NCBI GenBank assembly: GCA_012103295.1
Contig: WLXB01000022.1
Coordinates: 1,258 to 25,257 of the forward strand
Origin: Alphaproteobacteria bacterium
GTDB lineage: Bacteria > Pseudomonadota > Alphaproteobacteria > Rhodospirillales > Rhodospirillaceae
Direction: 5' to 3'
Length of the DNA: 24,000 bases
The notes under the pieces are model-generated. The model made no database searches. It was not told where the DNA came from and saw nothing but the letters and a program-made list of their open reading frames with translations. Positions within the stretch are counted from its first letter, which is position 1; every line of letters begins with the position of its first letter. Of this stretch, positions 5,700 through 21,282 are shown piece by piece. Both the position numbers and the translations under genes were made by a program.

Positions 5700-6518
5700 T
5701 CAAGGGCTCGGCGGCAACACCGGGGCCAATTCACCGCCATCCCTGAGCGGGTAAATCTTGTCAGCCAGACCTGTTCGATCATCAGTTTCGACCATAACGC
5801 CACAGATCGTGGCGGTTCCTGACGCCGGTTCAAGGCGCTCGCCCGGCAGACTGTCAACAAAGCGCCTCACCGCTATGCCAGCATCCATGCCGATCACTGA
5901 ATCAAAGGGTCCACACATTCCGGCATCAGTCTGAAACCCGGTCCCCGCCGGCATTATTCGGGTATCGGAGGTTGGAATGTGGGAATGACTACCAACGGCA
6001 AGAGAGGCTCGTCCGTCAGCTATGCAGCCCAAGGCCGTTTTCTCGCTGGTCGCCTCGCCGTGGATATCGATGACGATAGCGTCAGCGTCCTGCCCCAGCT
6101 GTGTTCCTCCCAGGAACGTTTCTAGGGCCCGGAATGGATCATCAATCGGGGGCATGAAAAGGCGTCCCATCACCTGGCAAACCGCGACCTGACGCCCATC
6201 GGCGGTGTGATACAACCCTGAACCCAAACCTGGAGTACCGTCGGCATAATTGATTGGTCGCAGTAACCTCGGTTCCGTCGGGATGTAGTCGATAATCTCC
6301 CGTTGATCCCAAGCGTGATTGCCGGTCGTAATGACATCCACACCAGCCAAGAATAAAGCTTCGCAAATTTTGACCGTAATCCCGAAGCCATGCGCGGCGT
6401 TCTCGCCACAGGCAATGACGAAGTCCAAACCGAGTTGACCGCGCAAGTCTGGCAGACGGTCGATGACGGCCTGCCGCCCGGATTTCCCCATGATATCGCC
6501 TAGATACAGAATCCTCAT
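5700..6518 (-). CDS. YmdB-like metallophosphoesterase (TIGR00282-type)
   Basis: 272 aa starting MRILYLGDIMGKSGR. Metallophosphoesterase motifs GEN, GNH, HGE and GSHSH occur in the family order. Confidence 0.8.
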   Translation of the reverse strand: MRILYLGDIMGKSGRQAVIDRLPDLRGQLGLDFVIACGENAAHGFGITVKICEALFLAGVDVITTGNHAWDQREIIDYIPTEPRLLRPINYADGTPGLGSGLYHTADGRQVAVCQVMGRLFMPPIDDPFRALETFLGGTQLGQDADAIVIDIHGEATSEKTALGCIADGRASLAVGSHSHIPTSDTRIMPAGTGFQTDAGMCGPFDSVIGMDAGIAVRRFVDSLPGERLEPASGTATICGVMVETDDRTGLADKIYPLRDGGELAPVLPPSP

Positions 6519-6526
6519 CGTGTATC

Positions 6527-7144
6527 TCAGCCGTCTGATTTCGCGAGAATAGTTCTGCTCGGTGTAATCACGCCATCCAACTGGGCGTCGAATGACTCCC
6601 GGGGGATCCGCACAACCTCTTGACCGTCATACCCTATTCCATAGGCTGCTATCTTCTTTGTCGAGCGCAACTTCGGAAGAGTGCGGTCATAATATCCGCC
6701 GCCAAAACCCAGGCGGTAGCCAAACGGGTCAAACGCAACCAAGGGCACCAAGATCACATCCGGATCAATGGCCTCTGACTTTGCCGCCGGGTGGTAGGTG
6801 CTCATGCGGCCTTTTTCCAACGCATCGCCCGTCTGCCAGGCGCGAAAGGCAAGGACATCGCCAGATTTACCAGCAACCGGCAAAACGATAGAAGCGCCGG
6901 CAACCTGCAAAGCTTCTAGAGCTGGCGATGGGTCAAGTTCATCACCAATGGCCACATACCCGGCGATGATAAGCGTTTCTGAGGTATCAATGACCTGAAG
7001 TATTTGTGTCGTTAGGTTGTCCGGCGCATCCGGCTCTGCCGCTCGCATCGTTTTCCGAACTGCCAGCATCTGTGTACGCAAAGCAGCCTTGGCGGCCTGA
7101 GCCTCGTCAGCGTTTTGGCCGCTATCTGAAGCCGATCGTGCCAT
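6527..7144 (-). CDS. 5-formyltetrahydrofolate cyclo-ligase
   Basis: The track ORF runs to 7219. I trimmed it to the ATG at 7144 (206 aa), because the upstream 75 nt fall inside the candidate 6S RNA. The family motif LGFGGGYYDRTL is present. Confidence 0.8.
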   Translation of the reverse strand: MARSASDSGQNADEAQAAKAALRTQMLAVRKTMRAAEPDAPDNLTTQILQVIDTSETLIIAGYVAIGDELDPSPALEALQVAGASIVLPVAGKSGDVLAFRAWQTGDALEKGRMSTYHPAAKSEAIDPDVILVPLVAFDPFGYRLGFGGGYYDRTLPKLRSTKKIAAYGIGYDGQEVVRIPRESFDAQLDGVITPSRTILAKSDG

Positions 7145-13088: not shown

Positions 13089-13143
13089 GAGAAGGTGTTG
13101 AAACACCTGGTTGGGGACCTCAAATTCAGGATGGAATGTTGGC

Positions 13144-14055
13144 ATGGCTAAGAAACGCGTTACGAGGCGAAGCGCTATACGCGTCGGGCCACAATTATTA
13201 GCAATGCTCTTAGCCCCCGTCGTCATAGCGTCAGGGGCGACAATTGGCCCAGAAGCCGTTGCTCAAAATATCGATGGAGTTTCTGTCAACTTAGGCGTAC
13301 TCGACGATCTCGACCCGATGAAGACTCTCCCCCGGCTCCTGATGCCAAGTTCTCAGCCCACCCGTGGCCGCGTCATTTTAACACCACCCGCGGGCGTTGA
13401 CGCCATAACACCACAGCGCGCGCGTGTCGTGCTGCGCCCACCGCCAGGTGCGCCAACACGCGTTGCATCTGCGCCAAAAATATCTGTGCCACCCAAAGCT
13501 CCAGCGGCCCCCGCTCCACCTGTATCGGTAACCGCACCGCCAGCTCCGGCGTCGACTAGCGTACCACAGCCGCCGGCGCCTATCGCCAGCGTCCCAGACA
13601 TATCTCAGTCTGATGACAGCACAGCGACCATAGAAACATCAGGGCCCATCGCTCCATCAGAGGCGACATCGCAGGAGCCCGAGCAGGCAACTGAACGCAG
13701 TCAAGCTGAGCAGGTCGCAGCGTTACCGAAGCCAGATTCTGATGCCGGGACGGTTTCCGTCGCTTTCGGAGTCGAGGAAACTGACCTTCCATCATCAGCA
13801 GCAGCCACGCTCACACCGGTGGCTGAGCGGATGAAATCTGACACAGAGCTTCGCGTCCAGTTACTCGCATACGCCAGTAGTGCAGACGGATCTCCAAGTA
13901 GTGTGCGCAGAAAATCTCTTAGCCGTGCACTGTCGGTTCGAGAGTTCCTAATGGATCAAGGCGTTCAAAGTACACGCATCGAAGTTAGAGCCCTGGGAGA
14001 CAAGGTTGAGGATGGAGCGCCTGACCGGGTCGATGCAGTTGTCGAGCGACGCTGA
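13144..14055 (+). CDS. Anchored or secreted Pro-rich protein with C-terminal OmpA-like domain (gene 1 of the stator-like triad)
   Basis: The track start at 13111 is a TTG, so I prefer the ATG at 13144 (303 aa). The N-terminus MAKKRVTRRSAIRVGPQLLAMLLAPVVIASGATIG is a signal or anchor. A Pro/Ala-rich spacer of about 110 aa follows. The C-terminus reads LRVQLLAYASSADGS...SLSRALSVREFLMDQGV...RIEVRALGD, matching the OmpA-C-like pattern. The SRALSV motif is identical to the one in gene 3. Confidence 0.65.
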   Translation: MAKKRVTRRSAIRVGPQLLAMLLAPVVIASGATIGPEAVAQNIDGVSVNLGVLDDLDPMKTLPRLLMPSSQPTRGRVILTPPAGVDAITPQRARVVLRPPPGAPTRVASAPKISVPPKAPAAPAPPVSVTAPPAPASTSVPQPPAPIASVPDISQSDDSTATIETSGPIAPSEATSQEPEQATERSQAEQVAALPKPDSDAGTVSVAFGVEETDLPSSAAATLTPVAERMKSDTELRVQLLAYASSADGSPSSVRRKSLSRALSVREFLMDQGVQSTRIEVRALGDKVEDGAPDRVDAVVERR

Positions 14056-14088
14056 ATGACTCTTCGGAGATAGATTCATGGTGCCGGA

Positions 14089-15303
14089 ATGACTGACACC
14101 ACACGCTTCCTCACACGGATGACGCTGTTCCTGGTCGCAGGATCTATAGCTGGCGCATTTCTATACGGAACCCTGGTTGAAGCCTTTATGGCCAATCCAC
14201 TTCTAAACGGATTGATTCTCGGCGTTCTTCTCATCGGTATTATTTTAAACGTGCGTCAAGTTCTGATGCTCAGACCGGAAGCTGAGTGGTTAGAATCATT
14301 CCAGGACAAAGGCGCTCAGGAGAAAAGTGAAGGTGGGCACAGCGCGGATGAGGCCCCGCCGCCTCTATCCGGAAGTGGGCCGAAGTTACTTTCGCCAATG
14401 GCGCGTATGTTGGCCGAGAGCCAAAGTCGAGGCGGAAAGTTCTCTCTCAGTGCTCAGGCCATGCGAACTCTTCTGGACGGTATTGCGTCGCGCCTTGAAG
14501 AATCTCGCGATCTAGCGCGGTATTTTGTCGGACTCTCAATCTTTCTGGGCTTACTCGGTACGTTCTGGGGATTGCTCGGCACCGTTGCGTCTGTCGGAGA
14601 CGTCATTCGCAACCTATCCATTACGGGAGAAGACATATCGCTGGTCTTCAATGATCTAAAAGCCGGTCTTGAAGCGCCACTCGACGGTATGGGTACGGCA
14701 TTTTCCTCTTCGCTGTTTGGTTTAGCTGGCTCTTTAGTTCTTGGCTTCCTTGATTTGCAAGCCGGTCAGGCACAGAACGCGTTTTACAACGATCTCGAAG
14801 AATGGCTATCGGGTATGACCCGGCTTTCGTCGGGAACCAGTCTGAGCGAAGGTGAACAGGGCGTTTCGGCATATACCGAAGCACTACTAGAGCAAACCGC
14901 TGAGAGCCTGGACGAACTCCAGCGGATATTGGGCCGCGGCGAGGAAAGCCGTATCGCCGGCAACCAGCATTTCGCAACCATGAACGATAAATTGACTCTG
15001 TTAACTGAACAGATGAAAGCTGAACAACAAGTCTTACTAAAGATGGCTGGAAACCAAAAAGACCTTTCCCCCCTCCTGGAAAAGGTCGGTGCTCTTGGTG
15101 ACGCACTCGCTCAACCGCAAGACTCTGGTATGGACGACGGCACCAAGACTCATATTCGAAATATTGATCAATCCTTGAATCGTTTGGTTTCAGAACTCAC
15201 AGCCGGCCGCGACCAAATGGTCAAAGACCTAAGGTCAGAAATCAAACTGCTCGCAAAGACGGTCGCAGCATCCAGCAGCCGCCCCGATACGTCGGAAAGC
15301 TAG
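14089..15303 (+). CDS. MotA/TolQ/ExbB-family proton-channel protein with a long C-terminal helical tail (gene 2 of the triad)
   Basis: 404 aa with four hydrophobic segments at about residues 11-31, 37-55, 143-170 and 200-224. The TM3 motif FLGLLGTFWGLLGTV parallels TolQ VGLFGTVWGIMNTF in this same window. TM4 GTAFSSSLFGLAGSLVLGF parallels AEALFATALGLVAAIPAV. About 180 aa of heptad-like tail follow TM4. Confidence 0.75.
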   Translation: MTDTTRFLTRMTLFLVAGSIAGAFLYGTLVEAFMANPLLNGLILGVLLIGIILNVRQVLMLRPEAEWLESFQDKGAQEKSEGGHSADEAPPPLSGSGPKLLSPMARMLAESQSRGGKFSLSAQAMRTLLDGIASRLEESRDLARYFVGLSIFLGLLGTFWGLLGTVASVGDVIRNLSITGEDISLVFNDLKAGLEAPLDGMGTAFSSSLFGLAGSLVLGFLDLQAGQAQNAFYNDLEEWLSGMTRLSSGTSLSEGEQGVSAYTEALLEQTAESLDELQRILGRGEESRIAGNQHFATMNDKLTLLTEQMKAEQQVLLKMAGNQKDLSPLLEKVGALGDALAQPQDSGMDDGTKTHIRNIDQSLNRLVSELTAGRDQMVKDLRSEIKLLAKTVAASSSRPDTSES

Positions 15304-15319
15304 GTCGTAGAGAAACCCG

Positions 15320-16540
15320 ATGGCACTGGCCCGCCGCACGCGTCGCACCACAGATATTTGGCCAGGGTTTGTCGACGCCCTTTCGACTCTTCTCATAATT
15401 ATCATTTTCATTTTAATGGTCTTTGTTCTCGGCCAATTTTTTCTGGGCCAAGCGCTGTCAGGGCGTGACGCTGCCCTTGAACGACTTACGGCTCAGGTCA
15501 ATGAACTTGGTGAAATGTTAGCGCTTGAGCGGCAAGCCAATACGGATCTAACACTCAACGTATCCCAATTGTCCGACCAACTGCAGGCTGCGAACATAGA
15601 GCTTGATGATTTAGCATCTCTACGAATGGAGAACCGACAACTACTCGGACAAATCGAAACACAAGATGCGGATGCGCGAGCTCGCGAAGCCGAACTAGCG
15701 CGAATGCAGACGGCAATCAACGCCGCGTTAGAAGCGGCGGAGGCTGATCAAACCCAGATTACAGAGCAACGCCAACAGCTAGCGCTGCTGCAACAGAATA
15801 TTAGAGCGCTTGAGGCCTTGAAAGCAGAGTTAGAGACAGAAATCTCTCGATTAGGCGATACCCTTGTCGAGCGCGACCGCGAAGTTGCAGAAGAACGCCA
15901 GGTATCTGTAGCAGCCAGAGCTCAGGCCGCACTAATGAGCCAGCAGTTGGAAGCGCTTAGGCAAGAGCTTGCCCGATTGGCAGAAACATTAGATGCCTCT
16001 GACGCGCTCTCAGTAGAACAGCGAGCCCAGATTGCCGACCTCGGGCGTAGAATGAACAGAGCCCTGGCAGGAAAAGTGCAAGAACTGCAGAGATACCGAT
16101 CCGAGTTCTTTGGCCGCCTTAGGGACATTTTGGGGACCCGGCCCGGCATTCAAGTCGTCGGTGACCGCTTTGTGTTCCAATCTGAAGTGCTATTTGCAAG
16201 TGGATCAGCTGAATTAGCGGCTGAGGGTCAACGTCAACTGGCCCAACTGGCGAAGACGCTCATCGATATTTCCCGCGACATACCAGAAGAGGTGGATTGG
16301 ATCATGCGGGTCGACGGCCATACCGACGATGTACCCATCAGTACCGCCACTTTTCGGTCAAACTGGGAGCTCTCGGTCTCACGGGCGCTGTCAGTCGTCC
16401 GCTTTCTGATCACGCAAGGTGTGGCACCAGAGCGCCTCGCCGCGGCAGGTTTTGGCGAGTATCAGCCAATTGACACCGCTAAAACCGGCTTAGCCCGGGG
16501 CAAAAACCGCCGAATTGAGCTAAAATTAGACCAAAGATAG
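15320..16540 (+). CDS. MotB-like protein: N-terminal TM with channel Asp, long coiled coil, C-terminal OmpA-like peptidoglycan-binding domain (gene 3 of the triad)
   Basis: 406 aa. WPGFVDALSTLLIIIIFILMVF carries Asp19 at the cytoplasmic end of the TM, comparable to TolR PMVDVMLVLL. Residues about 45-265 are Q/E/A/L-rich coiled coil. The C-terminus VDGHTDDVP...SNWELSVSRALSVVRFL...GFGEYQP...NRRIELKL is a canonical OmpA-C-like domain. Confidence 0.8.
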   Translation: MALARRTRRTTDIWPGFVDALSTLLIIIIFILMVFVLGQFFLGQALSGRDAALERLTAQVNELGEMLALERQANTDLTLNVSQLSDQLQAANIELDDLASLRMENRQLLGQIETQDADARAREAELARMQTAINAALEAAEADQTQITEQRQQLALLQQNIRALEALKAELETEISRLGDTLVERDREVAEERQVSVAARAQAALMSQQLEALRQELARLAETLDASDALSVEQRAQIADLGRRMNRALAGKVQELQRYRSEFFGRLRDILGTRPGIQVVGDRFVFQSEVLFASGSAELAAEGQRQLAQLAKTLIDISRDIPEEVDWIMRVDGHTDDVPISTATFRSNWELSVSRALSVVRFLITQGVAPERLAAAGFGEYQPIDTAKTGLARGKNRRIELKLDQR

Positions 16541-16621: not shown

Positions 16622-16846
16622 ATGAAAAAAGATATTCATCCCGATTATCATGACATTACGGTGATCATGACGGACGGCAGCGAGTACACGACCCGCAGCA
16701 CTATGGGCAAAGAAGGCGATACAATCCGTCTTGACGTTGATCCCAAGACTCACCCTGCGTGGACCGGCGTGCACCGTCTGCTTGATTCAGGTGGCCAACT
16801 TGCCAAATTTAACAAGCGCTTTTCTACATTTGGCTTAAAGAACTAA
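16622..16846 (+). CDS. rpmE: 50S ribosomal protein L31 (Cys-less form)
   Basis: 74 aa with [10 protein letters not shown]...THPAWTG...[14 protein letters not shown] lies 7 nt upstream of the ATG. Confidence 0.95.
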
Positions 16847-16870: not shown

Positions 16871-16900
16871 AGCCGCCTTCTTCGGAAGGCGGCTTTTTTT
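16871..16900 (+). terminator. Rho-independent terminator of rpmE
   Basis: The hairpin is agccgccttc-ttcg-gaaggcggct, followed by a T7 run. Confidence 0.9.
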
Positions 16901-16966
16901 GTGTCTAAGGCGAACCTTTAGCCAATTTGTGCGTTAGTCATATAACCGCAACTACCACGAATTCGC

Positions 16967-18832
16967 ATGCTGAGAGTCGTACAATACGAAGTTTATGTCC
17001 TCGACAGAGGCCGGTGGTTCTTCCAATCCCGTTATCCAGGTGCTGAGCGGGACGAAGCCATACTGGATGCTCGGAATACCGAGGTACGGACCGGCTATCC
17101 GACAAAAGTTGTCAAAGATACCTATCATCGCGATCAAAATTATTCGGAAGAGACAACGACCTACACAAGTCCAAATGCCAAGATTCATCTAGCACAAAAC
17201 AAGTCAGCCCCATTGCATTCGAGACAGACGCGGGGAAACCAAACCCACCGCAGCAAAGCAATAGGGAAACCTGGAACAGCGGGAGACCCGCAAAACCGTA
17301 AACCTCTTCAGCCAGTGAGCGACGGAACATTCGTTGTCCGGCTTGTCCTAGCCCTAGGCGGCAGCATGATACTTGCCGCCGCGCTGACTGCGTTACTTGC
17401 AACAGCACTAAACGCTATCAACAAACTAGGCTATCGTGTTTCAAGCGATGCAGGGTCGCAGATTACGATATATTGGTACATCGCCATGTTTCTGTTGAGT
17501 GCCGTCGCGCTCAATAAGGCTTATGTGCCCTGGCGTCAGCTTTTTGCCCGGCGTTCGATCGACGCAGCAGTCGCGCAACACATAGAACCCGCATCACCAC
17601 CTCCAGAAACGCACCTAAAACCGAAGCATCCCGATTCAGAGATCCAAGCTGAAAAAGATCGAGCCGTATTTGAAATGAAAACAATGCGTGGCGACATAGA
17701 TGTCGCCGCTGAACCCGCACAACTCGACGATACCACTGTCTTCGGCACCCTCGATGAGGGCCATACAAGCGACCAAGAATCCGAAAATCCAAAAGACCAC
17801 GAAGGCGTCGTCAATTCAGAGAAGGTAGATGGCAAACAAACTATTGCTCCACCCTCTAACCCAATAGTGGAGGCCAAAAACGAGCTCCAGGACACCCAAA
17901 AACCTAGCGAGGTAGCGCAGGCAACGACTCTCACAGAGATGGACATTGAGCGGTTAATTATGATGCGATTTCTCGGTGACGCCGTCATGACATTACGAGC
18001 CAGTCACGACCAGATGGACGCTAGGACGCAATTTGGAGTTAGCCTCTACTTGGCTGGTGCCGCTTCGGCTTTGGCCGACCAGCGTGGCCTTACTCCTGAT
18101 TCAGAACATGCCGTGTTGTCAGATGCTCTCAAACTCATCGGGCACGGGAACGCCAAGCGAGACTCCTTCTTCACAGCTTATGATGAGAATATGGCGGCCA
18201 AAAAGAATCAGGGCGTTATTGAGGCGGGTCAACAGGCCATGACCCGACACCTTCAATTCACAAACTGCCCTGCCAAAGACTTAGGCGCACTCCTCCAAAA
18301 GTGGGACAAGACAGCGCACTCGCCCACCCCTAGCCTCGGTGATATTTTTCTTCTTACCTATACAAATATATCCGGCACACCGTCGGCCGGAGCTGAGGAC
18401 AGCGATATGAGCAGGCACAATCATAGCGTTCGCCGGGTTTTGGAAAACTGCAATGGCGAGGAGGTGCGCCACACAGGAAAGGGTATTTTTGCCCGGTTCG
18501 CCCACCCAGATGACGCGATCTGCGCAGCTATTTCCATTCAGCAAGACCAGGAGCAAAAGCGAAAATCGGCGGAACCTCTTCCGACGACACGTGTTGCTGT
18601 GGTTGCTAGTCTCTTAGATCAAAGCGATCCAGATTTCTCAGGAGAGGTTTTTAGTTATTGCGACGGCCTTTGCAGGCGCCTTGGAGAGGGCCGGATCGCC
18701 TGCGACGCCACACTCAGTGATGTCTGCACTATTCACGATGTGGTTTTTGACCGCGCCATCCCGAGTGCCCATAGCGGCATTTCAGAACATGGCCCAGCGG
18801 TCGAAATCTTATGGGAACCTTTGCCTGCATAG
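16967..18832 (+). CDS. 2-TM membrane protein with a degenerate class III nucleotidyl-cyclase-like C-terminal domain (pseudo-cyclase paralogue)
   Basis: 621 aa. It shows full-length architectural homology to the next gene. The N-terminal modules align (VVQYEVYVLDRGRWFFQSRY against IEHFEIYYFQNGRWHVHARF). Both have two TMs (about residues 122-148 and 166-183 here). The mid domains align (FLGDAVMTLRASH...GVSLYLAGAAS...VIEAGQQAM). In the C-terminal domain, FLLTYTNISGT replaces FLFTDIVGST and RHTGKGIFARF replaces KHTGDGIMATF. Confidence 0.75.
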   Translation: MLRVVQYEVYVLDRGRWFFQSRYPGAERDEAILDARNTEVRTGYPTKVVKDTYHRDQNYSEETTTYTSPNAKIHLAQNKSAPLHSRQTRGNQTHRSKAIGKPGTAGDPQNRKPLQPVSDGTFVVRLVLALGGSMILAAALTALLATALNAINKLGYRVSSDAGSQITIYWYIAMFLLSAVALNKAYVPWRQLFARRSIDAAVAQHIEPASPPPETHLKPKHPDSEIQAEKDRAVFEMKTMRGDIDVAAEPAQLDDTTVFGTLDEGHTSDQESENPKDHEGVVNSEKVDGKQTIAPPSNPIVEAKNELQDTQKPSEVAQATTLTEMDIERLIMMRFLGDAVMTLRASHDQMDARTQFGVSLYLAGAASALADQRGLTPDSEHAVLSDALKLIGHGNAKRDSFFTAYDENMAAKKNQGVIEAGQQAMTRHLQFTNCPAKDLGALLQKWDKTAHSPTPSLGDIFLLTYTNISGTPSAGAEDSDMSRHNHSVRRVLENCNGEEVRHTGKGIFARFAHPDDAICAAISIQQDQEQKRKSAEPLPTTRVAVVASLLDQSDPDFSGEVFSYCDGLCRRLGEGRIACDATLSDVCTIHDVVFDRAIPSAHSGISEHGPAVEILWEPLPA

Positions 18833-19012
18833 CATTTTGAGCGTTTTTTAGGAGATATTCTCCGCTTAAGGGTTAAGACCCCTTTAGGGATTCTCCTGCA
18901 TATTCTTGATGTTAAGGGCATAAACCACTAACAATCCCCTTAATGGTGGGATAAGTCGGACTCTAATTCGACCGTTGGTAAAGGACCGTCGAACGAACGG
19001 CGAGCACAGGCC

Positions 19013-20983
19013 ATGGCGATCGAACACTTCGAGATATATTATTTCCAAAATGGCCGATGGCACGTACACGCCCGTTTTGAAGCCGAAGAACGCGAAATCG
19101 CCATCGAGGAAACCAAATCCGTCGAGGCCAATCTTGGTTATCCCGCGCGTGTCATTCGGGAAACTTTTTACCCAGAAACCAATACAACAGAAGAAGTTGT
19201 CACCTATCAGGGCAATCGCGCAAAGAAGATATCGGATTCCGACACGATGTTCGGAGCAAACGCGCAGGCTGGTGGGTCATCGGCAAAGAGCGGTTCCGGT
19301 GGAGGCGGCAAAGCGAGCGGCGGTAGTAAATCCGGTGGGGGCAAGCCTGCACGATCTACTCCACGACCAGAGGGCCGTGGTGCGGGATCAAGTGCTCGCC
19401 AGCAAGCCATCAAGAAAGACGCGAATAAACAGAAACAAAAAACGAGAAAAAAGGCCAAGAGCGCTTTTCTAACTGTTTTGACTGGCTTTGCACTAAGCCT
19501 GCTCGTTGCTGTAATCGGGTCTGTAGCCGTAACACTAATTCTATTCCAATTGGTCGAAGCGGGACTGGTTCCGAACGGGAATCGGAACCCCCTCCTCTTT
19601 GGAACCTTCATTCTTTTGTTCTTCGGTTCGGCCTTTATGCACTTAAACAAGAACTTCAACTTCATGAAGTTGTTCAAGAAGAAACCAAAAGAGAAGCGCG
19701 GACCAGCGCCAAAGACCGTGCCACTCGCACAAAAGAAACCAACGCCGCGTGACGCCTCTGATCTTGCCGATGCCAACATTGATGAGCTTGCTAAACGTGT
19801 GAAAGCAGACGATGCGGAAGGCGACATGACAGTCCCATCTCTTGATGATGATGGCTTTGAGTCTGATCAGCCATCCGACAAGAGCGGCGACAAAAAACCG
19901 AAAGAAAAAGAAAAAGAGAAACCAAAAGACGAGAAAAAAGAAAAAGCCGAAAAAAAGAAGGAAGAAGAGCGTAAGAAAAAAGAAGCCGAGAAAAAATCCA
20001 AGCAGGATGAGGAAAAACGTAAGGCGGCAGAAAAAAAGAAAAAGGAAAAGAGCCCCGTAGACACAGTCAAACCGGACTTTCTCAAATTCCTTACAGATGC
20101 GGTGACATCGATTCAGGCAGAGCACCCACAACTGAACACGTTTAGTAAATTTGGAATGAATTTGTATATGTGTGGAGCCTGCTCAACTATTTGTCAGGCT
20201 AAGGGCTTGGCCAACGACGTGATGCTAACATTGCTAAAGAATGGCTTGGGCTTGATCGGAACAAATGCTTCGAGCGCTCAATCATTCTGCGACGACATCC
20301 CAACCCATGGAAGCAATCCACGGTACGCGGGCATGATCCAGGCAGGAAGCCAAGCCATGCAGAATTTCATGGGTGGACAACCGAACATAAATGCAGGGTT
20401 AAGCGGCCTGCTGACAGAGTGGAATTTGCCCGAAAAGCGGGCTGCCGTACCCAATATGTTTACCTTCCTCTTTACCGATATCGTTGGGTCTACAGCGATG
20501 ACCCAACGCCTCGGCAATGCCGGCGCACAAAAAGCAGTACGTGCGCACAACGACGCCGTCCGGGGCGCCATTCAGCAGTATAATGGTCGTGAAGTTAAGC
20601 ATACGGGCGATGGCATCATGGCCACGTTCCCCGACGGCCCATCAGCTGTCGCTGCATCAATCCAAATGTTGCAGGGTGTGGTCTCCCACAATCAGGCCAG
20701 CCCTGACGTTCCCGTTGAAATTAGAGTTGGCGTCAATACAGGTGAAGCCGTGGAAGAAGAGAATGACTTCTTTGGGCAAGCTGTACAAATGACCGCACGA
20801 ATCTGCGATAAGGCAGCGGACGGCCACGCCTGGGTATCAGAGATAATCGTCGACGCATGCCAGGGCCAAAAATTCAAATTCCTACCCCGGGGTGAATTTG
20901 AAATGAAGGGCATAGAAAAGCCGAAGTCATTATTTGAAATCGCATGGACTGACACACATCGAGATGAGTTAGCAGATCTATAG
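19013..20983 (+). CDS. 2-TM membrane-anchored class III adenylate/guanylate cyclase
   Basis: 656 aa. The C-terminal 174 aa match the class III cyclase pattern: FLFTDIVGST (metal Asp489), VKHTGDGIMATF (Lys529, metal Asp533), IRVGVNTGEAV, FFGQAVQMTARI. TMs lie at about residues 151-181 and 193-210, flanked by basic residues. A Lys/Glu-rich segment of about 58 aa is also present. Confidence 0.85.
   Translation: MAIEHFEIYYFQNGRWHVHARFEAEEREIAIEETKSVEANLGYPARVIRETFYPETNTTEEVVTYQGNRAKKISDSDTMFGANAQAGGSSAKSGSGGGGKASGGSKSGGGKPARSTPRPEGRGAGSSARQQAIKKDANKQKQKTRKKAKSAFLTVLTGFALSLLVAVIGSVAVTLILFQLVEAGLVPNGNRNPLLFGTFILLFFGSAFMHLNKNFNFMKLFKKKPKEKRGPAPKTVPLAQKKPTPRDASDLADANIDELAKRVKADDAEGDMTVPSLDDDGFESDQPSDKSGDKKPKEKEKEKPKDEKKEKAEKKKEEERKKKEAEKKSKQDEEKRKAAEKKKKEKSPVDTVKPDFLKFLTDAVTSIQAEHPQLNTFSKFGMNLYMCGACSTICQAKGLANDVMLTLLKNGLGLIGTNASSAQSFCDDIPTHGSNPRYAGMIQAGSQAMQNFMGGQPNINAGLSGLLTEWNLPEKRAAVPNMFTFLFTDIVGSTAMTQRLGNAGAQKAVRAHNDAVRGAIQQYNGREVKHTGDGIMATFPDGPSAVAASIQMLQGVVSHNQASPDVPVEIRVGVNTGEAVEEENDFFGQAVQMTARICDKAADGHAWVSEIIVDACQGQKFKFLPRGEFEMKGIEKPKSLFEIAWTDTHRDELADL
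19885..20052 (+). repeat. Purine-rich low-complexity tract encoding the Lys/Glu-rich segment of the cyclase
   Basis: About 170 nt are almost entirely A/G, with several A6-A7 runs. They encode DKKPKEKEKEKPKDEKKEKAEKKKEEERKKKEAEKKSKQDEEKRKAAEKKKKEK. Confidence 0.9.
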
Positions 20984-20997
20984 GCCGCGACGTGTGG

Positions 20998-21177
20998 TCA
21001 CTTGAATACAGACTCCGCCCCCATGCGTGCGCTTTGCTTTGCTTTTATCGCCGCTTTCGTGCGTTCAATCTCCACTGACATTAACTCTATATATTCTTCC
21101 AAATCTTCAATAGACATGACCGTAAGATCGCGCGGCTTTACCTTCTTGCCCAAAGGTTCAAGGTCTTCAGCATCCAT
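20998..21177 (-). CDS. DUF1192-family small protein
   Basis: The track ORF runs to 21222. I trimmed it to the ATG at 21177, which has AGGAGA 6 nt upstream. This gives 59 aa: MDAEDLEPLGKKVKPRDLTVMSIEDLEEYIELMSVEIERTKAAIKAKQSARMGAESVFK, matching the DUF1192 pattern. Confidence 0.75.
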   Translation of the reverse strand: MDAEDLEPLGKKVKPRDLTVMSIEDLEEYIELMSVEIERTKAAIKAKQSARMGAESVFK

Positions 21178-21282
21178 CACATTTCTCCTATACACCCAGC
21201 CTGCCCTTTGTCTGGACGTCACCGGTCGTCGTTACTAAAGTTCGGGCAACTCTAAGACAAAAATCCTTGGAAGAAAAAGAGC

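Follow-up and report, generated by a model that had tools for sequence, protein, structure and literature searches.

A conserved, probably non-catalytic paralogue accompanies an intact-looking membrane class III cyclase in a marine clade of Rhodospirillales

The window, a 24,000-nt stretch of contig WLXB01000022.1 from a bacterium of the Rhodospirillaceae, carries two tandem genes for membrane proteins of the class III cyclase type. The downstream copy (open reading frame B, ORF-B; protein B) retains a full catalytic set, whereas the upstream copy (ORF-A; protein A) has lost it. A is nevertheless maintained by purifying selection in about 17 related marine bacteria, each of which carries it directly upstream of B. 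These features suggest that A is probably a non-catalytic regulator, and not one half of a two-part enzyme. Its most plausible target is B, whose output it may lower or gate by direct association.

A and B are genuine full-length paralogues, with a similarity far above chance. BLASTP aligns their C-terminal parts with 28% identity across 296 residues (E 2e-31) and their N-terminal parts with 32% identity across the first 71 residues (E 5e-11). An earlier reading of the window from its letters and open reading frames (the sequence-only reading) had described them as tandem full-length paralogues. Both frames are found exactly where it had placed them, and the motifs and residue numbers it quoted for the two proteins proved correct on re-reading. 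The five-part architecture it assigned to both is also borne out, by AlphaFold2 (AF2) models, hydropathy, profile searches and BLASTP. In each protein an N-terminal module (N-module) is followed by a basic linker, two hydrophobic segments, a helical mid-domain and a cyclase-homology domain (CHD) (Table 1). The N-module comprises ~72 residues with a predicted ββαββ fold (AF2 predicted local distance difference test, pLDDT, 92). The mid-domain, of ~127 residues, is modelled by AF2 as an all-helical unit of seven helices (pLDDT 88.4; predicted template-modelling score 0.83). According to the hydropathy scan, loops of about 12-17 residues join the hydrophobic segments in A and B. Because these segments are flanked by basic stretches, both termini are predicted to be cytoplasmic in A and B, which agrees with the cytoplasmic input side proposed earlier.

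Searches with the two accessory domains gave no accepted relative of known structure. The N-module profile matched no PDB sequence below E 1, and the best Foldseek hit in the PDB was a resemblance to the RuBisCO small subunit (E 0.07, TM score about 0.5) that is too weak for homology to be accepted. For the mid-domain, the profile found no match among PDB sequences, and the best Foldseek hit in the PDB, at E 2.3, gave no solved structural relative. An exhaustive profile search with the N-module returned 654 cluster representatives. In all 150 of these that were listed the module lies at the very N-terminus, and most of the 150 proteins have the length of this cyclase family, the shorter ones being probably fragmentary. 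The linkers between hairpin and mid-domain are dissimilar in composition: that of B contains a long Lys/Glu-rich run (KKPKEKEKEKPKDEKKEKAEKKKEEERKKKEAEKK...) resembling a charged single-helix spacer, whereas its counterpart in A is acidic, rich in Pro and Gln, and devoid of such a run.

The CHD of B is readily recognized. Residues 483-636 match PF00211 at 3.4e-14 (53.3 bits, against a cut-off of 21.9), and the best solved relatives, with an unambiguous alignment, are the actinobacterial class III adenylate cyclases Ma1120 from M. avium (4.6e-20) and Rv1900c/LipJ (3.3e-19). The motifs FLFTD489, K529HTGD533G and D585FFGQAVQ592MTAR596 supply the metal-binding residues D489 and D533 together with K529, D585, Q592 and R596; with K632 they make up a set of seven that is invariant among 30 homologues. 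Ma1120 has K101, D157, A164 and R168 as its catalytic-position residues (PMC4215837), and K529, D585, Q592 and R596 of B reproduce their spacing exactly. The substrate-defining pair K529 and D585 aligns with K101 and D157, and predicts the conversion of ATP to cyclic AMP (cAMP) by B.

All canonical positions of B are filled apart from one family-wide substitution, as expected of a copy that had been called intact-looking. Within the transition-state Asn-Arg pair, Arg596 is kept and Gln592 occupies the Asn position, a replacement about which the sequence-only reading had raised a doubt. This doubt is largely removed by the comparison with Ma1120, which also lacks the canonical Asn, is active with Ala164 in its place and loses activity when this residue is mutated to Asn (PMC4215837). 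A Gln at this position thus does not exclude activity of B and, being invariant in the family, appears to be a hallmark of the Rhodospirillales cyclases and not a defect. Thr occupies the otherwise invariant Gln position in three loci (L027, AVTVAAR; L039, AVTLAAR; L046, AVTIAAR), which derive from Rhodospira, Pararhodospirillum and a related metagenome-assembled genome (MAG). B differs from Ma1120 and Rv1900c in its ββαββ N-module, two-helix hairpin and seven-helix mid-domain. On these grounds, B is predicted to be a class III adenylate cyclase that is anchored in the membrane and belongs to the Ma1120/Rv1900c-like branch.

A is far more divergent and gives no match to Pfam even at E ≤ 1. Solved class III cyclases are nevertheless detected by a profile restricted to its C-terminal domain (3mr7 at 2.6e-7, Ma1120 at 4e-5), so A appears to carry a genuine, though strongly diverged, CHD, ~24% identical to that of B. 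Its corresponding motifs are FLLTY465, R501HTGK505G and D556FSGEVFS563YCDG567LCRRL. The metal positions are thus held by Y465 and K505, the Lys position by R501, the Asp position by D556, the Asn/Gln position by S563, the Arg position by G567 and the last Lys position by S603. The alignment of A's own profile with 3mr7 likewise places Lys at a metal Asp, Ser at the Asn and Thr/Gly at the Arg.

To read these positions across the family, hidden Markov models were built, every member in 87 loci was aligned, and seven catalytic columns were tabulated. B-type and singleton copies read D-D-K-D-Q-R-K, with Gln replaced by Thr in three copies and the last Lys by Arg in three. In no A copy is either metal Asp present, the first being replaced by Y/S/E/I and the second by K/T/A. 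Equivalents of the Asn/Gln and the Arg are likewise missing from every A copy, and the Lys position of these copies holds R/K/T/Q/P. The profile alignment that had been proposed as a check on the degeneracy of the upstream copy therefore restores no metal Asp, and we consider the assignment of A as dead and B as active to be very likely.

The degenerate domain has conserved features of its own, with a signature formed by Y465, R501, K505, CRR and HSGI. R501 and K505 are invariant in 20 of 20 A orthologues, and D/E556 is present in 18. The C569-R570-R571 motif, one helical turn past the lost Arg, is nearly invariant in A within the window's subclade, with R570 and R571 in 16 of the 20. At residue 497 of A (about 18455-18457) the window encodes Gly (NCNGEEV), a residue otherwise invariant across the A and B families (G497/G525); the cluster representative P0001, reported as 100% identical to A, has Cys here (NCNCEEV).

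Conservation of A extends well beyond this signature. Full-length A frames are found in 15 of 17 distinct loci, the other two being cut by a contig end and truncated, respectively, and at the loci with open frames the B partners diverge to as little as about 40% identity. Loss or pseudogenization of the upstream gene in close relatives, which the sequence-only reading had named as evidence against itself, is thus not what these loci display. Among 20 A orthologues, mean pairwise identity is 0.65 in the N-module, 0.57 in the membrane hairpin, 0.52 in the mid-domain and 0.50 in the pseudo-CHD, compared with 0.15 and 0.20 in the two linkers. Together, the open frames and this difference between domains and linkers establish purifying selection on A. 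The pseudo-CHD has 22 invariant residues in the 20 orthologues and 35 invariant columns in a set of 12; most of its invariant residues are common with B, in the β2-β3 stretch G-x-E-x-x-H-x-G-x-G-x-x-A-x-F.

A comparison of the two copies in 11 genomes from the whole clade locates the relaxation. CHD identity is 0.34 in A vs 0.75 in B, while the values are 0.47 vs 0.62 for the N-module, 0.39 vs 0.55 for the mid-domain and 0.34 vs 0.34 for the membrane hairpin. Relaxation in A is therefore concentrated on the catalytic domain, the other domains being comparable to those of B. A is a pseudoenzyme in the sense that its catalytic residues are lost while the remaining fold is under purifying selection.

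The pair occupies a narrow part of a widespread family. A homologue search with A returned 22 relatives, all 41-72% identical, and one with B returned more than 100 full-length relatives. Scanning species-representative genomes with a B alignment yielded at least 579 loci, most of the loci studied being from MAGs. Among the best 80 of these, all with a credible label belong to Rhodospirillales, among them the genera Novispirillum, Haematospirillum, Caenispirillum, Telmatospirillum, Roseospirillum, Pararhodospirillum, Magnetospirillum, Magnetovibrio and Oleispirillum. The A+B tandem is present in the window and L001-L018, which represent 17 distinct loci of one marine clade, with a B at least 40% identical to that of the window. 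Neighbour co-occurrence, another check that had been called for, was complete, with A directly upstream of B in 17 of 17. About 65 more distant loci contain one intact gene in the same slot next to rpmE, the gene for ribosomal protein L31.

Other duplications occur in the family. L060 (4975-9015) and L077 (5944-10131), both from Thalassospiraceae-like MAGs, contain an independent tandem duplication in which both copies are intact and read D-D-K-D-Q-R-K, a condition intermediate between a singleton and a pair of intact and dead copies. A second intact member located away from rpmE is found in the MAG that contains L028 and L083, in the MAG that contains L053 and L065, and at L069, L070, L075, L078 and L085. 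The family thus appears to expand by dispersed duplication as well.

In a neighbour-joining tree of 293 mid-domain and CHD columns, the A copies are monophyletic in 100 of 100 bootstraps and sit on a long branch, and their subtree branches in the same pattern as that of the B partners. A separate clade, likewise found in 100 of 100 bootstraps, unites the L060/L077 duplicates. The tree places A outside all other copies. We do not take this as a sign of an older lineage but attribute it to the long branch, since no A copy occurs outside the clade of its B partners. The simplest history would be a single in-situ tandem duplication beside rpmE at the base of one marine clade, followed by loss of catalysis in the rpmE-proximal copy and then co-divergence of the pair. 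At L072 (5950-7070), the N-module and hairpin of an A-type copy (ORF 5950-6684) abut, out of frame, a B-type tail made of the last 171 CHD residues (6555-7070), with ~2.4 kb of the usual pair missing. A natural loss of the pair was not accepted for this locus, which comes from a co-assembled MAG and is indistinguishable from a misassembly.

Class III CHDs pair head to tail, and the composition of the sites in the dimer was reportedly established by Tesmer in 1997 and Guo in 2001. Each site takes two metal Asp from one chain and Lys, Asp, Asn and Arg from the other; in the mammalian enzymes, the metal ligands come from C1 and the specificity residues from C2 (PMC6027212). With neither half retained in A, no canonical site would be complete in an A·B dimer. 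B keeps both halves invariant in every genome, which implies B homodimers, and the singleton orthologues, as single intact genes outside the clade, must act as homodimers.

We propose that B would work as a head-to-tail homodimer (B2) with two complete active sites, like its single-copy orthologues, and that B2 would convert ATP to cAMP. Association of A with B would involve the surfaces that the two have in common in hairpin, mid-domain and CHD. The resulting inactive A·B dimers would reduce or gate the production of cAMP to a degree that depends on the A:B ratio, which apparently separate cis-regulatory regions would allow the cell to set. Alternatively, the gating may respond to a signal that A senses with its N-module or mid-domain. 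A related effect has been described in trypanosomes, where a T. brucei ESAG4 CHD with its metal Asp and transition-state Arg replaced is dominant negative on wild-type partners, the dead domain still dimerizing and thereby lowering the activity of the intact ones (PMC6027212). By analogy, this is the behaviour predicted for A, although the ESAG4 variant is a laboratory mutant with two residues changed, whereas A is a natural, anciently diverged gene with motifs of its own. Taken as a whole, the model in which A is a conserved pseudo-cyclase and modulates B, likely negatively, through hetero-association has in our estimate an even chance of being correct, and hetero-association itself stands at even odds or slightly below.

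Several points temper this model. A mirror-tree analysis does not discriminate: the A-B distance correlation (r 0.91) is hardly distinct from that between A and the nearby ADH (0.89), and the partial correlation of A and B given controls (0.56) is no better than the control partial (0.62). The catalytic-equivalent residues of A differ between subclades, so that any function of its pocket cannot be universal. In the window's own subclade, R501, D556 and C569-R570-R571 may leave room for a non-canonical half-site. Finally, the B frame is interrupted in 4 of the 17 loci, all from MAGs (L007, L008, L016, L017); these splits are probably assembly errors, since neighbouring genes are fragmented too in L008.

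The sequence-only reading had suggested a different arrangement, an obligate heterodimer of A and B whose two sites would be one catalytic and one a regulatory pseudo-site, as a split version of C1/C2; the alpha/beta pair of soluble guanylate cyclase (sGC) would be a further parallel. The working site would then combine the metal Asp of B with R501, D556 and relocated basic residues of A, and the opposite pocket (Y465/K505 of A; K529/D585/R596/K632 of B) would bind nucleotide without turnover. The conserved adjacency and co-divergence of the pair would suit such an enzyme, as would the conservation of R501 and D/E556, which conservatively keep the purine pair, and the relocated CRR of the window's subclade; the invariant Lys505 could replace a cation in phosphate binding. 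Canonical logic fails, however, because neither Asp is present in A and equivalents of the Asn/Gln and the Arg are missing too, and R501 and CRR are absent from other A subclades (L004-L018 types) in which the pair is conserved all the same. Moreover, C1, C2, sGC alpha and sGC beta have each shed one half of the site, whereas B retains both; if B worked only together with A, the invariance of its seven residues would be hard to account for. The single intact orthologues outside the clade, pointing to a homodimeric ancestral enzyme, weaken the proposal further, and we regard it as improbable. A version restricted to the window's subclade, with one unconventional site built from the metal Asp of B and Arg501/Asp556 of A, Arg570/571 standing in for the lost Arg, and one metal-free nucleotide pocket in which Lys505 of A serves as cation substitute opposite the Lys/Asp/Arg/Lys of B, seems to us equally remote. 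If true, bacteria would here possess an equivalent of sGC or C1/C2 that is encoded by two genes and uses relocated catalytic residues.

A more serious competitor, though still the less likely account, is that A functions independently of B, as a receptor or scaffold in the membrane that has no catalytic role. It would act as an A2 homodimer by means of the N-module, the mid-domain and a remodelled nucleotide pocket, and adjacency to B would be a relic of the duplication. The whole neighbourhood is syntenic across the order, which makes adjacency weak evidence of a functional link, and A and B, 96-300 nt apart, are never translationally coupled. The signature particular to A and a distance correlation with B no higher than that with ADH are also consistent with independence. 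Against this, A retains the hairpin, mid-domain and CHD core as in B, all plausible surfaces for contact with a partner, and none of the 17 A-carrying loci lacks a B copy in the adjacent slot. It might also be asked whether A is a decaying duplicate without function, given that it has lost all catalytic residues, has no Pfam match and evolves faster than B. This view is effectively refuted by the conservation pattern, namely full-length frames in nearly all loci even where B partners are only about 40% identical, domains at 0.50-0.65 identity beside linkers at 0.15-0.20, and 35 invariant pseudo-CHD columns among 12 orthologues. Modulation of B by A through hetero-association thus remains the reading we prefer.

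Table 1. Positions of the paired genes, their domains and adjacent elements in the window.
Feature	Coordinates	Strand	Size or supporting evidence
ORF-A, very probably catalytically dead paralogue (pseudo-cyclase)	16967..18832	+	621 aa
ORF-B, membrane class III adenylate-cyclase-type protein, catalytic set intact	19013..20983	+	656 aa
rpmE (ribosomal protein L31)	16622..16846	+	PF01197 at 3.6e-25
rpmE intrinsic terminator	16871..16904	+	10-bp GC-rich stem, then T-run
A-B intergenic region	18833..19012	+	180 nt
A N-terminal ββαββ module, aa 2-73	16970..17185	+	N-domain hidden Markov model at 1.3e-34
A membrane hairpin, aa 119-152 + 164-188, 17-aa loop	17321..17530	+	hydropathy scan
A helical mid-domain, aa 326-452	17942..18322	+	alignment to B mid-domain
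A pseudo-CHD, aa 453-621	18323..18829	+	residue columns, A-only profile
B N-terminal ββαββ module, aa 1-72	19013..19228	+	AF2 pLDDT 92.4
B membrane hairpin, aa 148-189 + 192-212	19454..19648	+	hydropathy; both flanks basic
B Lys/Glu-rich charged linker, aa ~289-350	19877..20062	+	weak PF11600 match
B helical mid-domain, aa 352-478	20066..20446	+	AF2 seven-helix bundle
B cyclase-homology domain (CHD), aa 479-645	20447..20947	+	PF00211

The layout of the locus bears on how the two genes may be controlled. The cyclase gene lies directly downstream of rpmE in most of the 87 loci, also where it is single-copy. The syntenic order across Rhodospirillales is MotA-like, MotB-like, rpmE, cyclase, ADH (quinone-oxidoreductase-like) and TrcR. 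The strong terminator of rpmE upstream of A means that ORF-A needs its own promoter. Reading ORF coordinates across loci, A and B never overlap, and no terminator is predicted in the gap between them. Blocks at -129, -75 and -44 from the B start are conserved in the gaps of five genomes (the window, L001, L002, L007 and L008), whose A proteins are only 42-65% identical; these blocks are not found in the other subclades. Separate regulation of A and B is plausible on this basis, the rpmE terminator lying before A and a non-overlapping gap with conserved blocks before B. No sigma-70-like site was detected in the rpmE-A or A-B gap, by a scan that is ill-suited to alphaproteobacterial promoters.

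Two stretches of the A-B gap, 18967-18978 and 19011-19024, stand out. The -44 block, TTCGACCGTTGG, is partly complementary to CCATGGCGATCGAA, which spans the B start codon, and their pairing could form a candidate hairpin that sequesters the start codon. A structured RNA in the gap was considered and not accepted: RNAalifold on the five sequences gave a positive, hence unfavourable, covariation term and few compensatory pairs. An Rfam search of the window found no RNA family.

Further neighbours are recorded for completeness. Upstream of rpmE, the window (13111..16540, + strand) encodes an OmpA-domain protein of 314 aa, a MotA/ExbB-like protein of 404 aa and a coiled-coil OmpA/MotB-like protein of 406 aa. 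The MotA/ExbB match of the 404-aa protein is weak, its E of 2.7e-4 falling short of the Pfam cut-off. Some 45 loci across Rhodospirillales keep the MotA-like/MotB-like pair in this place ahead of rpmE and the cyclase. A small convergent gene of 74 aa (20998..21222, - strand) lies 15 nt past the B stop and corresponds to a PF06698/DUF1192 gene at the same position in L001, L002, L005 and L006; this gene is kept downstream of the cyclase in many loci.

Like mammalian C1/C2 and sGC alpha/beta, A and B are CHD paralogues that arose by duplication, with one partner catalytically incomplete. As with A and B, sGC alpha and beta are paralogues on separate, full-length chains whose domains follow the same order. 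In C1/C2 and sGC, however, degeneracy is complementary: one chain provides the metal Asp and the other the Lys/Asp (or Glu/Cys), Asn and Arg, which yields one good site and one pseudo-site. In A/B, by contrast, B keeps every residue and A none, and no complete site is predicted in A·B. Within the clade the two genes occur together in all 17 distinct loci, as for partners of the C1/C2 type, but outside it the family is single-copy.

Dead paralogues of second-messenger enzymes that are kept as receptors or regulators are familiar in bacteria from degenerate GGDEF/EAL proteins, and dead regulatory paralogues are also well documented for kinases. GGDEF/EAL proteins differ from A in fold subfamily and in messenger. 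Many degenerate ones bind their messenger at retained sites, and no retained binding site common to all A copies is evident. Our literature search found no description of a dead paralogue that regulates a bacterial class III cyclase, and nothing relevant on Rhodospirillales cyclases.

The pairing of dead A with intact B extends well beyond the window, and the functional statements made here are all predictions. They concern an uncharacterized cyclase family that is found across an entire order beside rpmE, contains two domains without a solved relative and has Gln at the Asn position. At a single locus, this family presents an evolutionary series from a single intact gene, in most Rhodospirillales, through a tandem with both copies intact, in L060 and L077, to an intact copy paired with a dead one. 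With this series one can examine how heteromeric cyclases of the C1/C2 or sGC kind arise, and whether evolution can settle stably on a fully dead partner in place of complementary half-sites.

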